Positions 6,720-34,134 are shown, counted from the first letter of the stretch. The stretch: 64,000 nucleotides of DNA from Chiayiivirga flava (GCF_014202825.1 NZ_JACHHP010000005.1:11818-75817), one strand, 5' to 3'. Notes: generated by a model not told the origin, from the letters alone. Numbers and translations are program-made.

Positions 6720-6794
6720 TGGCTGGGGCGGCAGGATTCGAACCTGCGGATGCCGGGATCAAAACCCGGTGCCTTACCGCTTGGCGACGCCCCA
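6720..6794 (-). tRNA. tRNA-Gln (anticodon TTG), CCA encoded
   Basis: The reverse complement TGGGGCGTCGCCAAGCGGTAAGGCACCGGGTTTTGATCCCGGCATCCGCAGGTTCGAATCCTGCCGCCCCAGCCA folds by hand into a canonical cloverleaf. The anticodon loop is TTTTGAT and the T-loop is GGTTCGAATCC. Confidence 0.85.
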
Positions 6795-28587: not shown

Positions 28588-28866
28588 TTTCTACCTCGGG
28601 GGCGCGCCCCCAGACAATCGGAATTTGGCATCCGGGTGCACGCCGCCACCTCGGCCCCCCGAGCGGACCGGCTGCACGTCCGCTGCGCAGCGGCCCTGCC
28701 GCGTCGGCCGTCGCGGTTGCGACAGGCAGGCGCGACGCCATCCGGACCATTCGGGAAAGCACGGAATGATAGTGGTTGGGGGGGCGCGCGGGCAAGACGA
28801 GCGCTGGTGCGATTGGTGCGACTGCAGCCCACACACAACGCCCGCGAGGCGCCGAGCCGAAGTTTT

Positions 28867-29057
28867 CCTTCTCCCCGTGGGAGAAGGGCGAGGCGGCTAT
28901 CGCCGGCCGAACGCAGGGCGGATGAGGGACGGGCATCGAATGCAATCGCCGCATCGGTCGAAGCGACGTTCCCGGTAGCCGGGTTGATCATCGCCACGGG
29001 ACGGCGTGGCGCCCGTCCCTCATCCGGCTGCCGCCACCTTCTCCCGGTGGGAGAAGG
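28867..29057. repeat. Family-C MITE-like element C1 (about 190 bp, palindromic termini)
   Basis: Termini are ccttctccccgtgggagaagg and ccttctcccggtgggagaagg, each itself palindromic. Subterminal inverted repeats cggatgagggacggg and cccgtccctcatccg are also present. Elements C2 and C3 share about 45 bp at each end. Confidence 0.6.
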
Positions 29058-29160
29058 AACGCAGGCTGACGGGTCTCGGCCGATCCCGTCGCTTCCAATG
29101 CCCGCAAACGACGCGACCCCGCCGGAGCGGGGTCGCGTTTCAACCGTCAGACGGCGGAAC

Positions 29161-30263: not shown

Positions 30264-30292
30264 TTGCATTCTTCTTAACGAAACTTTAATTT
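30264..30292 (+). promoter_or_regulatory. Sigma70-like promoter in an AT-rich patch
   Basis: TTGCAT (30264-30269), a 17-nt spacer, then TAATTT (30287-30292). The local AT-rich stretch is gtgtttgcattcttcttaacgaaactttaatttgtg. Confidence 0.35.
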
Positions 30293-30493
30293 GTGCCGCC
30301 TCGCCGACCCTTCGGCGATGTCTCCACTCATTCCACAAGGCCGATCCATGTCCCGCTTCATCTTCGCCATCGCCAGCCCGCTCGACGCACCGGCCAGCCG
30401 CCGCGTCACGCGGACGACTGCACACGGCGCCATCACCACGGACTGATCTGCCCGCCACGCGGAGATCGGTCACCCGATCTCCGAGGCTGCACG

Positions 30494-30529
30494 AACGCCC
30501 TCGGACGCACATCCGGGGGCGTTTTTTTT
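30494..30529 (+). terminator. Rho-independent terminator
   Basis: AACGCCC-TCGGA-cgcaca-TCCG-G-GGGCGTT followed by T8 (30522-30529). This is a strong hairpin plus U-tract on the plus strand only. Confidence 0.65.
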
Positions 30530-30724
30530 GCGCGTTCGTCATGGAGCACAACACCACAATCGACGCGGGCGCACAGGCGACCGCGTGCAAGGAATCGGTG
30601 CCGCGACCCGGCATCGATGCATCGCATCAAGGAACGGCTCCCTGCGGCCCGGGTTTGTTGCCCGGCCGGTGCGCACGGCATTGCCGTCGCGTATGCCCGG
30701 AACCGGACACCGGTGCGGTGCAAG

Positions 30725-30793
30725 GCGGCGGTAGCTCAGCGGTGAGAGCACGGGCGTGTCCCGAGGTCGCCGGTTCGACTTCGGCCCGCCGCG
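30725..30793 (+). tRNA. tRNA-like element 1 with truncated anticodon arm (non-canonical; possible tRNA mimic or pseudo-tRNA)
   Basis: GCGGCGG-TA-GCTC-AGCGGTGA-GAGC-A-CGGG-CGTGT-CCCG-AGGTC-GCCGG-TTCGACT-TCGGC-CCGCCGC-G. The 7-bp acceptor pairs perfectly. D-arm and T-arm are canonical (GTAGCTCAG...GGTTCGA). The anticodon arm is only a 4-bp stem with a 5-nt loop. Length 69 nt, no CCA. Confidence 0.45.
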
Positions 30794-30865
30794 TTTGGAT
30801 AGCTCAGACGGGTAGAGCACAGAACGTTGATTCTGAAGTCGCGGGTTCGAATCCCGCTCCAAGAC
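30793..30865 (+). tRNA. tRNA-like element 2 with 6-nt anticodon loop (non-canonical)
   Basis: GTTTGGA-TA-GCTC-AGACGGGTA-GAGC-A-CAGAA-CGTTGA-TTCTG-AAGTC-GCGGG-TTCGAAT-CCCGC-TCCAAGA-C. The anticodon loop has 6 nt instead of 7 and there is a G1-A72 mismatch. Its first nucleotide is the discriminator base of element 1, so there is no spacer between the two. Confidence 0.45.
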
Positions 30866-31160
30866 ACATGACCTGTCACGTCATGACCACGGGACGCAAG
30901 TCCCTTCCACGGAAACGCCCCGCGCGGCGTTTCGTCATCCCGCCGCAGCGGCAACGCGGCGTGGTGTCGAGCGATGCAGCGGACCCATCGCCGGGTCTTC
31001 GCCTTCGCAGGGCGCGGGCCGGTCTGCAGCGTCCCGTGTGACCGCGCGGGCTGCGTTCCGGCCTCCGCCCCAACGCGCGCCTGGACTCCGCGACGTGCTT
31101 CGCCAGGGGCGCTTCCACCTATTCCGCGATGTGCGCCCGCGCATCGCAAACGCATCCAAC

Positions 31161-31350
31161 GCCCCTCTCCCGTGGGAGAGGGGTTGGGGAGAGGGTCTGG
31201 GACGAACAAAACGCCGGCAATCGCCTCGTGCCAGCAAGTCGCTGCTATTGCTTCCTTGAAATGGCAATGGCAACTCACGCAACACGACCGCAGCAGTGCA
31301 CGCCATTGCAACGCTTCGACCGAACCCTCTCCCACGGAGAGAGGGGCTCA
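31161..31350. repeat. Family-B REP inverted pair flanking a 125-bp spacer
   Basis: 31161-31196 is cccctctcccgtgggagaggggttggggagaggg. 31321-31350 is cgaaccctctcccacggagagaggggct. Confidence 0.65.
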
Positions 31351-31438
31351 ACGACATCCCCGCACGCGCGAATCGATCCGGCGCATGCGGCTTCAGCGCA
31401 AACGGATCGAACCACCAGAGCCACAAGGAGAACCCACC

Positions 31439-32563
31439 ATGTTCTGGACCAAGAGGGTCGTGATCGGCGACGGCGAGCGCGGCCTGGTGTATCGCAACAA
31501 GCAGTTCGAGGCCGTGCTCGGCCCGCGCGTGCACCGCATCGTCGACCCGTTCAACCGGGTCGTCGTGCTGACGCATTCGATCGCGAATCCCGAATACGCC
31601 GGCCGCGACATCGACACGCTGCGTGCCCGCCTCGGCGATGTGCGCTTCGACGAACTGTTCCTGCTCGTCGACCTGCGAGCCGACGAAGTCGGTCTGGTGC
31701 GTCAGCACGGCGTCATCGAGGACGTGCTCGCGCCGGGCACGCGCAAGATCTTCTGGCGCGGCGACGGCCGGTTGAGCGTCGAGCGCATGGTGCTGGACGA
31801 GGGCCTGCAACTGCGCGCGGACGTGATGCAGCGCCTGCGCCAGCTCGGCACGCTGTCGAAGGTGGCCGTGGCGGTGCACGTGCCGGCGGAGTCGACGGGC
31901 CTCGTGTTCATCGACGGCAAGCTGATGCGCTCGCTGGCGCCGGGCGCCTACGCCTTCTGGAACTTCCAGAAGAACGTGGTGGCCGAGGTCGTCGAGCAGC
32001 GCGTGCAGTCGATCGAGGTCTCGGGCCAGGAGTTGCTGACCCGCGACAAGGTCTCGCTGCGCGTGAACCTCGCCGCGTCGCTGCGCGTCGTCGATCCGGT
32101 GGCCGCGAAGACGCGCGTGGCGAAGTTCGTCGACCACGTCTACCGCGAACTGCAGTACGGCCTGCGCCGTGCCGTGGCCGCGAAGACGCTCGACGAACTG
32201 CTCGGCGACAAGGCCTCGCTCGACGCCGACATCTACGCCTACGTGCACGGCCGCGTCGGCGAGTTCGGCATCGACATGCTCGGTGTCGGCGTCAAGGACG
32301 TGATCCTGCCGGGCGAGATGAAGGAGATCCTCAACGGCGTGGTGCAGGCGGAGAAGTCGGCGCAGGCCAACGTCATCCGCCGTCGCGAGGAGGCGAACGC
32401 CACGCGTTCCCTGCTCAACACCGCGAAGCTGATCGAGGAGAGTCCGGTGCTGATGCGGCTGAAGGAACTGGAGGCGCTGGAAAAGGTCACCGAGAAGATC
32501 GACAAGCTCACCGTGTTCGGCGGCCTGGACGGCGTGCTGAAGCAGCTGGTGACGATGAAGTAG
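31439..32563 (+). CDS. SPFH/band 7 (slipin-like) domain protein with a 170-aa N-terminal extension
   Basis: ATG at 31439 with AAGGAG 8 nt upstream. The C-terminal half (TRDKVSLRVNLAASLRVVDPVAAK...VILPGEMKEILNGVVQAEKSAQANVIRRREEA) is a band-7 domain. No N-terminal TM helix. Confidence 0.8.
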   Translation: MFWTKRVVIGDGERGLVYRNKQFEAVLGPRVHRIVDPFNRVVVLTHSIANPEYAGRDIDTLRARLGDVRFDELFLLVDLRADEVGLVRQHGVIEDVLAPGTRKIFWRGDGRLSVERMVLDEGLQLRADVMQRLRQLGTLSKVAVAVHVPAESTGLVFIDGKLMRSLAPGAYAFWNFQKNVVAEVVEQRVQSIEVSGQELLTRDKVSLRVNLAASLRVVDPVAAKTRVAKFVDHVYRELQYGLRRAVAAKTLDELLGDKASLDADIYAYVHGRVGEFGIDMLGVGVKDVILPGEMKEILNGVVQAEKSAQANVIRRREEANATRSLLNTAKLIEESPVLMRLKELEALEKVTEKIDKLTVFGGLDGVLKQLVTMK

Positions 32564-32618
32564 CACCCCGCGCGCGGCGGACGGAACCACCGCGCGCGGC
32601 CTCGATGGAAGCAAGGAC

Positions 32619-33839
32619 ATGGACACGAACAACTACGAGTTGCTGCATGCGGAAGGTTCGCGCACACCGATCAAGGGCTGGGTGCGGGGCGTGCCGCTGG
32701 AAGCCGAAGCCCACCAGCAATTGCGCAACATCGCGGACATCCCGTTCGTGGGCCCGTGGGTGGCGGTGATGCCGGACGTGCATCTAGGCAAGGGTGCGAC
32801 CGTGGGCTCGGTGATCCCGACGCGCGGCGCGATCATCCCGGCCGCGGTCGGCGTCGACATCGGCTGCGGCATGGCGGCGGTGCGCACCACGCTGCGCGCG
32901 GACGACCTGCCGGACAGCCTCGCGCAGCTGCGTTCTAGCATCGAACGCGGCGTGCCGGTGGGCAATGGCCGCTTCGGCGAGCACCACAAGATTCCCGACA
33001 GCATCGAGACGCGTGTTGCGCAGTCCGGGCTGGTGCAGCGCCTCGATGCGATCAAGGCGAAGCATCGGAAGATCCGCACCGACAAGCTCGATCGCCAGAT
33101 CGGCACGCTCGGCGGCGGCAACCACTTCATCGAGCTCTGCCTCGACGAGAGCGATGCCGTGTGGGTGATGCTGCACTCGGGCTCGCGCGGGACGGGCAAC
33201 CTCATCGGCACGTATTTCATCGAACGTGCGCGCGAGGAACTCGGCCGGCGCGTGCTCGGTTTCCAACTGCCGGACAAGGACCTCGCGTTCTTCCTCGAGG
33301 GCGAGCCGCTGTTCGACGACTACGTCGAGGCGGTGTCGTGGGCGCAAGACTACGCGCGCCACAACCGCGAGGCGATGATGGCGCGCGTGCTGCACGACAT
33401 GCGCCAGCGCTTGCCGAAGTTCCAGCTCACGCAGATGGCGGTGAACTGCCACCACAACTACGTCAACCGCGAAACGCATGGTGGCGAATCGCTGCTCGTC
33501 ACGCGCAAGGGCGCGGTGAGTGCGCGTGAAGGCGAACTCGGCATGATTCCGGGCAGCATGGGCACGCGCAGCTACATCGTGCGTGGCCTCGGCAACGCGG
33601 ACAGCTTCCACAGCTGCAGCCACGGTGCCGGACGCGTGATGAGCCGCACGCGGGCGCGGCAGGAGATCACGCTGGCGCAGCATCGCGAGGCCACCGCGCA
33701 CTTGGAGTGCCGCAAGGATGCCTCGGTGGTCGACGAATCGCCGGCCGCGTACAAGCCGATCGAGGCGGTGATGGCGGCGCAGCAGGATCTGGTGGAGATC
33801 GTGCATACGCTGCGGCAAGTGGTGTGCATCAAGGGGTGA
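32619..33839 (+). CDS. rtcB: RNA-splicing ligase RtcB (3'-phosphate/5'-hydroxyl RNA ligase)
   Basis: 406 aa: MDTNNYELLHAEGSRTPIKGWVRGVPLEAEA...GGGNHFIELC...NCHHNYV...SCSHGAGR, with all the conserved metal and GMP-His motifs. No rtcA or rtcR is adjacent. Confidence 0.9.
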   Translation: MDTNNYELLHAEGSRTPIKGWVRGVPLEAEAHQQLRNIADIPFVGPWVAVMPDVHLGKGATVGSVIPTRGAIIPAAVGVDIGCGMAAVRTTLRADDLPDSLAQLRSSIERGVPVGNGRFGEHHKIPDSIETRVAQSGLVQRLDAIKAKHRKIRTDKLDRQIGTLGGGNHFIELCLDESDAVWVMLHSGSRGTGNLIGTYFIERAREELGRRVLGFQLPDKDLAFFLEGEPLFDDYVEAVSWAQDYARHNREAMMARVLHDMRQRLPKFQLTQMAVNCHHNYVNRETHGGESLLVTRKGAVSAREGELGMIPGSMGTRSYIVRGLGNADSFHSCSHGAGRVMSRTRARQEITLAQHREATAHLECRKDASVVDESPAAYKPIEAVMAAQQDLVEIVHTLRQVVCIKG

Positions 33840-33904
33840 TGCTTCGAACCGGGCGCCCAACACCGGCGCCCGTGTCCATCCTCGACACCGTCACATGAAA
33901 CCTT

Positions 33905-34087
33905 CCTTCTCCCCGCGGGAGAAGGGTGAGGCGGCTACCGCCGGCCGAACGGCAGGGCGGATGAGGGACGGACGCCCCGGTCTGACCGAACATTCCCGAA
34001 GCAGAAAACCCGCTTCGAACAGACCCTCGGGCGCATGCCAGGCCCGTCCCTCATCCGCCTTCGGCACCTTCTCCCGCGGGGAGAAGG
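33905..34087. repeat. Family-C MITE-like element C2
   Basis: Termini ccttctccccgcgggagaagg and ccttctcccgcggggagaagg, with the same subterminal ggcggctaccgccggccgaacg...agggcggatgagggacgg and cccgtccctcatccg as C1. The core differs. Confidence 0.6.
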
Positions 34088-34134
34088 AACATCATTGGGC
34101 GCCCGGCACCTTTTTCTTCGGTAAAGGAGCTGCG

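Follow-up and report, generated by a model that had tools for sequence, protein, structure and literature searches.

What might an RNA ligase gene be doing behind two tRNA-shaped RNAs and an SPFH gene when its usual companions are missing? This question is raised by a locus of Chiayiivirga flava (Lysobacterales), which we analysed within a 64-kb stretch of the genome (NZ_JACHHP010000005.1:11818-75817; hereafter the window, with positions counted from its first letter). All on the + strand, the locus carries two tandem tRNA-like elements (element 1, 30725-30792, its end falling at 30792/3; element 2, 30793-30866), an SPFH/band-7 ('slipin') gene (31439-32563) and rtcB (32619-33839). A sequence-only reading of the stretch had seen in these parts a combination not described before. 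The combination is in fact that of the Band-7/b7a-tRNA/RtcB system, which was predicted to act in RNA repair by Burroughs and Aravind (2016; NAR 44:8525), as relayed in the passages on it in bioRxiv 10.1101/312249 and PMC13404743. We put the odds at roughly three in four that the locus belongs to this system, its Band-7 component being an SPFH protein that resembles the major vault protein (MVP), with stress-triggered read-through and an assembly of SPFH protein, RNA and RtcB as the inferred mechanism. The core association was already a published prediction of comparative genomics, and finding it again is no discovery; the locus is an instance of a known system, of which the extended RNA and the attenuator described below are possibly new. 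The abstract of the original description reportedly names 'a novel tRNA-like molecule' as the RNA cognate to SPFH/Band-7 modules.

The tRNA-like RNAs, the SPFH protein and RtcB across related loci

The genes and RNAs lie where the sequence-only reading had placed them, as ARAGORN, Rfam and Pfam confirm. Both tRNA-like elements are found by ARAGORN and by the Rfam tRNA model (RF00005; 40.6 bits for element 1 and 46.7 bits for element 2). The SPFH gene, with its ATG at 31439 and an AAGGAG at 31425, encodes 374 aa, and the 406-aa product of rtcB matches PF01139 with E = 1.7e-123. The gap between the SPFH gene and rtcB measures 55 nt and that between element 2 and the SPFH ATG 572 nt, in agreement with the 55 and ~570 given earlier. 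It was also correct that rtcB stands apart from its better-known partners: neither rtcA, rtcR nor rsr (TROVE) is present among the open reading frames (ORFs) flanking the module, the rest of the genome being outside the scope of this analysis, and the GAFTGA signature of sigma-54 activators has no match in any frame of the whole 64-kb window.

Two collections of related loci were compared. The close set, with one genome per species, comprises 80 loci, nearly all from Lysobacterales-type genera or metagenome-assembled genomes, at SPFH identities of 68-79%; the diverse set, retrieved with a profile from distant homologues, comprises 84 metagenome or viral loci of 36-71% GC at SPFH identities of 33-78%. 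Every close locus with enough upstream DNA has the tandem tRNA-like pair ~350-550 nt upstream and on the same strand. In 76/77 Lysobacterales and 61/62 diverse loci, the stretch 200-650 nt upstream of the SPFH gene contains a T-arm motif, and tandem T-arms are present in 75/76 close and 41/61 diverse loci. RtcB is encoded adjacently in 67 of the 70 close loci, there after the SPFH gene, and in 18 of 41 diverse loci, where it may lie upstream or downstream. Its recurrence in essentially all of the related loci that we examined puts the arrangement, by this comparison, far beyond chance, and the tRNA-like RNAs, the SPFH gene and rtcB are co-conserved, as had been supposed. The same counts (T-arm 76/77 and 61/62, RtcB 18/41 in the diverse loci) would make the SPFH protein and the RNA a close to obligate pair and RtcB a frequent but facultative partner. 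The earlier proposal of a self-contained system in which a tRNA mimic scaffolds RtcB therefore stands in part: a scaffold or cofactor role for the RNA is the published hypothesis, and it is the facultative presence of RtcB that does not fit.

The two elements are, as far as their sequences tell, tRNA mimics and not decoding tRNAs, since their 'anticodon' loops have only 5 nt in the Rfam alignment and their 'anticodons' are unstable among orthologues; the tRNA elbow is kept and the anticodon loops are degenerate. ARAGORN calls them an off-register His-gtg and an undetermined '???', its 'anticodon' differs in nearly every orthologous locus, and the columns of the 'anticodon' loop are unconserved, varying between loci in both length and sequence. 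Element 1 combines a 7-bp acceptor stem and intact D and T arms with a shortened 'anticodon' loop; in element 2, intact D and T arms accompany an invariant acceptor core (UGGA/UCCA) and, in C. flava, a 5-nt loop. Across 69 loci, RNAalifold returns two cloverleaves with compensatory changes in 20/38 pairs, in which 97% of cells are paired (32-46% in slid controls) and whose observed values are reached by 0/500 shuffles. The elbow formed by the D- and T-loops (UAGCUCA..GG..AGAGC and GGUUCGAnUCC) is invariant or nearly so. Ordinary tRNA genes, an outcome that the sequence-only reading had named as speaking against it, are thus ruled out by the 5-nt loops and the variation of the 'anticodons', and its other such outcome, independent occurrence of the parts, is not what the survey found. 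We also rejected a Y RNA/YrlA assignment, given that the Rfam YrlA model scores 27.7 bits (gathering score 69) and no rsr gene is nearby, and judged spurious an antisense Rfam match to 'Plastid-ycf2' over the elements, on the opposite strand and far under its gathering score.

Most species have (A)CCA after element 1, abutting element 2 (alignment columns 79-84), and C. flava has GCGU at this place (30792-30796). Where (A)CCA is present, an RNase P cut at element 2 would give element 1 a mature-looking CCA end, as the triplet directly abuts element 2. The only canonical tRNA in the window is a tRNA-Gln (ttg) on the - strand (6720-6794, 64.6 bits).

The SPFH gene product is 100% identical to the NCBI entry 'slipin family protein [Chiayiivirga flava]'. 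Pfam places Band_7 (PF01145) at residues 148-319 (E = 1.3e-24), so that the N-terminal extension has ~147 aa and not the 170 aa, of unassigned function, reported before; residues 8-45 give a weak match to the beginning of the Band_7 model, and the 147 residues consist of beta-repeats that are related to the first part of the SPFH fold. An AlphaFold2 model with a mean confidence (predicted local distance difference test, pLDDT) of 74 shows beta-repeats, the SPFH domain and long C-terminal helices. When this model was compared by Foldseek, MVP alone aligned over 365-383 columns, which is essentially full length, and stomatin, HflK/C, erlin and prohibitin aligned over ~225-275 columns. The membrane location suggested earlier for the SPFH protein is not borne out by these data: no hydrophobic or transmembrane segment is predicted by Kyte-Doolittle analysis in 19-residue windows (maximum score 1.23; isoelectric point 9.1). 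In the absence of any membrane-anchoring sign in the sequence, a soluble, presumably RNA-binding, MVP-like scaffold fits better. Band-7 proteins of the system have likewise been cited as homologues of MVP, in the part of PMC13404743 that deals with them, and a study of Pseudomonas aeruginosa SPFH proteins places one of them within the rtc locus.

The family comprises 544 clusters at E <= 1e-30, most of 365-395 aa and some of 500-550 aa with additional N-terminal segments. These longer homologues (P0126, P0136, P0137, P0142 and others) match the C. flava protein in two stretches, which suggests that they carry extra copies of the N-terminal beta-repeats and might be still more MVP-like.

RtcB is a 3'-phosphate/5'-hydroxyl RNA ligase, here in its compact bacterial form, and all of its conserved motifs are present (DVHLGKG, GVDIGCGM, GGGNHFIE, HSGSRG, NCHHN and HGAG), which we take to carry the metal-binding and guanylylated residues. 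Three close loci (L024, L045 and L072 of our survey) have the SPFH gene and the tRNA-like pair and no rtcB within ~4 kb downstream; in L024, the downstream ORFs lie on the opposite strand. The neighbourhood of the diverse loci further includes genes for HNH endonucleases, RlaP, an AAA ATPase and a metallophosphoesterase, as well as arrays of 10-35 tRNA genes. The core stands just after such arrays in L093, L099, L101, L105, L114, L115, L117, L124, L128, L142, L156, L157 and L162, often together with HNH endonuclease, RlaP and metallophosphoesterase genes; L162, a viral contig, has 35 tRNA genes, and the C. flava window has no array. In about ten loci (L017:5175-5951, L023, L057, L064, L067, L069, L070, L074-L076 and L138), the SPFH gene is separated from rtcB by a 258-aa ORF. 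The accessory ORFs of relatives (258, 352, 307 and 223 aa) are lineage-specific, and none of them matches a Pfam family or has a homologue in the window. The flanks of the window match those of 0/65 related loci, and the relatives fall into several synteny groups.

A large structured RNA and its leader

The tRNA-like elements do lie 570 bp upstream of the SPFH gene, as the sequence-only reading had it, but the gap is not empty, and the RNAs are embedded in a large RNA behind an attenuator. In its Lysobacterales form, the locus has the predicted order sigma-70-type promoter, leader ORF, terminator/antiterminator, ~520-nt RNA with two tRNA-like modules, SPFH gene and rtcB, and appears to be a single transcription unit. 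The ~520-nt RNA is a predicted structure with support from covariation, and the tRNA-like elements would be parts of it rather than free-standing molecules. An Rfam 15 scan of the structured region returned no family other than tRNA.

Upstream of element 1, the 5' domain (30593-30721; RNAalifold, 31 loci) consists of the P1 hairpin (30593-30619), the long-range helices P2 (30619-30628 with 30712-30721) and P3, one further hairpin, and the near-invariant P6 element CCGGUGCGCACGGCAUUGCCGUCGCGUAUGCC (30666-30697). The latter pairs as GGUGCGCGCGGC...GCCGUGGCGUAUGCC with fixed G.U pairs, and the strand of the domain is fixed because these pairs are invariant. Compensatory changes occur in 21/38 pairs of the 5' domain, 95% of its cells are paired (32-43% in slid controls), and the observed values are attained in 0/500 shuffles. 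Many distant loci have a P6-like motif ~100 nt upstream of the T-arm.

Downstream of element 2 follow two hairpins that covary across loci, H1 (CAUGAC...GUCAUG, 30867-30885) and H2 (GGGAC-GCAA-GUCCC with a GNRA tetraloop, 30891-30904), and then the 3' domain (30911-31116; RNAalifold, 32 loci), a rod-like domain of ~200 nt enclosed by an 11-bp closing helix. The closing helix reads GGAAACGCCCC:GGGGCGUUUCC across loci and is formed in C. flava by GGAAACGCCCC (30911-30921) and GGGGCGCUUCC (31106-31116), with one A.C mismatch. Here, 36/49 pairs show compensatory changes, 90.9% of cells are paired, and again 0/500 shuffles reach the observed values. A global fold gives the same domains, and the C. 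flava sequence forms 136/163 consensus pairs despite alignment noise. In many relatives the closing helix is followed by CAC and a U-rich tract (33/70 with at least 5 T of 12), and a local hairpin that competes with the closing helix is 80% paired with weak covariation.

Between the 3' domain and the SPFH gene, C. flava has species-specific insertions relative to its relatives (31139-31151 and 31185-31352), which is why its spacer of 572 nt is long compared with the ~350-430 nt of most relatives; palindromes resembling repetitive extragenic palindromic (REP) sequences lie next to and within these insertions (31162-31183 and 31325-31346). The last stretch before the gene (31371-31432) is conserved in relatives and contains a hairpin ahead of the ribosome-binding site, AAUCGAUCCG...CGGAUCGAA, a ACCACCAGAGCCA box and the Shine-Dalgarno AAGGAG (31425).

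Most relatives have an extra structured segment of ~110 nt between terminator and P1, ~230-130 nt upstream of element 1, an example being a hairpin whose loop reads GAUGCUUCG; this segment is absent from the C. flava window and from L025, L048 and L072. The block GGUGCGC...GCGUAUGCC was considered as a -24/-12 promoter, which would have pointed to sigma-54/RtcR control, and was discarded given that covariation shows it to be an RNA helix and that GAFTGA is missing from the window.

The promoter that we assign to the unit (30264-30292) is of the sigma-70 type, with TTGCAT (30264-30269) as -35 element, a 17-nt spacer and TAATTT (30287-30292) as -10 element. Its form TTGCAn-N17-TAAnGT, with an A-rich stretch upstream, is conserved in an alignment of 75 loci, where the motif can be read as CTTGCA-N17-(C)GTAAnGT. 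Its -35 hexamer fits only 3/6 consensus positions, for which reason it escaped a generic promoter scan. It is followed by a leader ORF of 32 codons (30348-30446), MSRFIFAIASPLDAPASRRVTRTTAHGAITTD, which ends in GAC-TGA and whose ATG is aligned in 72/75 loci. The length of the ORF ranges from 32 to 48 codons and the stop lies 7-18 nt before the invariant hairpin b:c in 72/72 loci; the peptide itself shows little conservation, and those alignment gaps that we inspected are multiples of 3.

The leader ORF runs into a five-segment attenuator (30441-30529) of mutually exclusive helices. Segment a, GACUGAUC (30441-30450), overlaps the last leader codon and the stop; b and c form a 9-bp hairpin (30461-30469 / 30474-30482); e and f form an intrinsic terminator of 11 bp followed by U8 (30493-30504 / 30513-30523); and the cd:e antiterminator pairs UCCGAGG (30480-30486) with CCUCGGA (30499-30505), sharing bases with both c and e. 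In 49 loci, b:c and e:f are 99.4% paired. The antiterminator has the form YCCGAGG:CCUCGGR, and its Y:R pair is held in 75/75 loci, as C:G in 50 and as U:A in 25. The duplex of a with b and the loop has a mean energy of -16.4 kcal/mol compared with -9.0 for shuffles (mean z = -3.1), and compensatory variants occur; pairing of a with the first 10 nt of b alone was rejected, being no better than shuffles (z = -0.54). When the C. flava sequence is folded, the full segment adopts the hairpin and the terminator (-48.3 kcal/mol), and the nascent RNA adopts a:b and the antiterminator.

We also considered whether the leader could sense colicin-E5-type damage through codons read by queuosine tRNAs (His, Asp, Asn and Tyr). 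At its C-terminus only His and Asp are enriched, and the enrichment of Asp is largely due to the final residue being fixed. We found no literature on control of rtcB by a leader peptide, and the descriptions of the system given in bioRxiv 10.1101/312249 and PMC13404743 mention, in the passages concerned, neither the large-RNA context nor the attenuator.

The module is bordered by a gene for a YscW-domain lipoprotein and by a very long minus-strand ORF, which we take, from its translation alone, to be TamB-like. Two near-identical composite repeats of ~195 bp (28865-29060 and 33903-34090) bracket a 5-kb segment containing the lipoprotein gene and the module; they are 88-100% identical over matching blocks and each is bounded by inverted TTCCTTCTCCCCGYGGGAGAAGG palindromes. 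Given that related palindromes also occur near 7.8-8.1 kb, 31.16 kb, 31.33 kb and 51.4-51.6 kb, these repeats may belong to a common intergenic family of REP sequences or miniature inverted-repeat transposable elements.

Proposed mechanism and rival explanations

The topology of the leader allows a simple regulatory logic to be proposed. Smooth translation of the leader to its stop would place the ribosome over segment a, b:c and the terminator e:f would form, and the operon would be off. If ribosomes were stalled or scarce, be it through cleaved tRNAs, damaged rRNA or antibiotics, a:b could pair, segments c/d would be free to form the antiterminator with e, and transcription would read through. 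The SPFH protein would then assemble into a ring or cage of the kind seen in solved structures of SPFH and vault proteins, and the structured RNA would bind this assembly, its tRNA-shaped modules recruiting or positioning RtcB and possibly tRNA-handling enzymes. RtcB, in turn, would reseal RNAs, chiefly tRNAs, that had been broken to 2',3'-cyclic-phosphate and 5'-OH ends. Within this scheme the attenuator may serve as a sensor of translation stress in place of RtcR, a logic that fits published reports of rtc genes responding to translational stress.

If the attenuator operates in this way, a leader peptide can give operons for RNA repair a direct means of monitoring translation, in place of RtcR sensing tRNA fragments. 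The anatomy described here provides boundaries and a structure model for the RNA, names impaired translation of a 32-codon leader as the likely inducing signal, and predicts that point mutations in a, c/d and e could lock the switch on or off. It is also of wider relevance in that the system has been proposed to correspond, in bacteria, to the vault ribonucleoprotein. We regard as possible, and as somewhat short of probable, the more specific proposal that the 'b7a-tRNA' of the Lysobacterales is the core of an ornate ~520-nt RNA outside all Rfam families other than tRNA, and that a leader-peptide attenuator responsive to failing translation switches the whole unit of RNA, SPFH protein and RtcB, which would be a way of sensing damage to tRNAs or ribosomes independently of RtcR.

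Several observations weigh against assignment to the Band-7/b7a-tRNA/RtcB system with this mechanism. In 3/70 close and 23/41 diverse loci there is no adjacent gene for RtcB, and given how often it is missing from this position, the SPFH-RNA pair may act without the ligase. The b7a-tRNA itself was without experimental validation as of 2018 (bioRxiv 10.1101/312249). One relative, L033 (Lysobacter sp. TAF61), lacks the whole 3' RNA domain, its element 2 lying 82 nt before the SPFH start, and in C. flava the closing helix is mismatched and the U-tract after it degenerate. Residues 1-50 of the SPFH model are of low confidence (pLDDT <50). Covariation in the attenuator is thin (2/20 pairs in b:c and e:f) because the helices are mostly invariant. 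The ON/OFF logic, moreover, is deduced from topology alone; it implies read-through also when the leader is wholly untranslated, and it has to accommodate a stop-to-hairpin spacing that varies from 7 to 18 nt.

Other explanations have to be weighed against the same data. The upstream RNA might be a purely cis-acting leader of the SPFH-rtcB genes, akin to a riboswitch or T-box, with tRNA-like modules that act as sensors whose cleavage or binding alters read-through, and would then not be a cofactor in trans. That it invariably stands on the same strand immediately ahead of the SPFH gene would suit this role, as would the lack of an evident second promoter before that gene, the helix and U-rich tract that end the 3' domain in about half of the relatives, and the local hairpin that competes with the closing helix and is 80% paired. 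The U-tract, however, is poorly conserved and weak in C. flava, the competing hairpin shows little covariation, and a separate, well-formed attenuator is already present upstream. A conserved and ornate structure of ~520 nt also exceeds what known leaders need, and the published interpretation, as given in the relevant passages of bioRxiv 10.1101/312249 and PMC13404743, is that of a protein-bound non-coding RNA. We thus consider a purely cis-acting role unlikely. A different division of labour would have the SPFH protein and the RNA build a vault-like ribonucleoprotein that serves primarily for something other than ligation, for instance storage, sequestration or quality control of RNA, RtcB being one among several interchangeable neighbours. 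The near-obligate pairing of SPFH protein and RNA (76/77 and 61/62) set against RtcB in 18/41 diverse loci, the alternative neighbours (AAA ATPase, HNH endonucleases and RlaP) and the MVP-like architecture of the protein are all in keeping with such a particle. In the clade of C. flava, however, RtcB follows the SPFH gene in 67/70 loci, and two of the alternative neighbours, RlaP and the metallophosphoesterase, are themselves linked to RNA repair, Pfam PF10127 (RlaP) being a family of RNA repair pathways; a role other than ligation is therefore, in our view, decidedly unlikely for this locus.

The tRNA-like elements could also be decoys or sponges for anticodon nucleases or other tRNA-targeting toxins, to be resealed by RtcB after cleavage. 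Similar ideas have been published for YrlA's tRNA-like domain and for array-encoded tRNAs, the tRNA elbow is intact, and large tRNA arrays occur in related loci; yet the anticodon loop, which is the usual determinant for such nucleases, is cut to 5 nt here and hypervariable between species, the large RNA that contains the elements has a dedicated protein as its partner, and a single-copy locus makes a poor sponge, so that we rate a decoy function as very improbable. Chance juxtaposition of two ordinary or decaying tRNA genes with unrelated SPFH and rtcB genes can draw on the fact that both elements pass the Rfam gathering score for tRNA, and is refuted by the 'anticodon' variation, the cloverleaf covariation and the locus survey: the arrangement is kept across 130+ loci of 36-71% GC, the loops are non-canonical and their 'anticodons' unstable, covariation maintains the fold, and the flanking RNA domains are conserved. 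Such a coincidence has practically no probability left. Membership of the Band-7/b7a-tRNA/RtcB system, with an RNA that acts together with the SPFH protein and RtcB, remains the reading that we favour.

Relation to known systems

The Band-7/b7a-tRNA/RtcB system shares with this locus an RtcB gene next to a Band-7 gene and a predicted tRNA-like non-coding RNA, which is proposed to be the cognate cofactor, and RlaP occurs in related loci of both. There is no difference in kind; what the C. flava locus has in particular are two tandem elements with degenerate loops, the ~520-nt RNA and the attenuator in the leader. Distant relatives of the SPFH-RNA pair also touch upon the tRNA-array system with the repressor TrcR, in that they follow arrays of 10-35 tRNAs together with an HNH endonuclease gene and rtcB. 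The array system is reported to be controlled by direct repeats in the array promoter and TrcR; neither an SPFH protein nor a tRNA-like RNA is mentioned in the array paper, and the C. flava window is without an array.

The rsr-yrlBA-rtcBA operon of Salmonella Typhimurium likewise combines RtcB with an RNA-binding scaffold protein and a non-coding RNA containing a tRNA-like domain. Here, in contrast, the scaffold is an SPFH protein and not Ro60, neither Rsr/TROVE nor RtcA is encoded adjacently, the YrlA model stays at 27.7 bits (gathering score 69), and control is apparently by attenuation, whereas the Salmonella operon depends on sigma-54 and RtcR. The rtcR-rtcBA operon of Escherichia coli encodes a ligase of the same family and is induced by damage to the translation apparatus; unlike it, the C. 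flava locus has no RtcA, no RtcR/sigma-54 activator signature in the window and a sigma-70-like promoter.

The eukaryotic vault, composed of MVP and vault RNA, resembles the predicted particle in its N-terminal beta-repeats, its SPFH 'shoulder', its long helix and a genomic tie to a structured RNA. The protein described here has only 374 aa (~800-890 aa in MVP) and 2-3 repeats, and its RNA is tRNA-like and not a vault RNA; a closed cage is not implied by the present data. The attenuators of the trpL, hisL and pheM type, finally, offer a parallel for the leader: in each, a short ORF is followed at once by a series of mutually exclusive helices, the last of them an intrinsic terminator. The candidate attenuator of C. 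flava differs from them in having five segments instead of four, in lacking a run of one regulatory codon and in encoding a diverse peptide, and it would place genes of RNA repair, and not of amino-acid supply, under this form of control.

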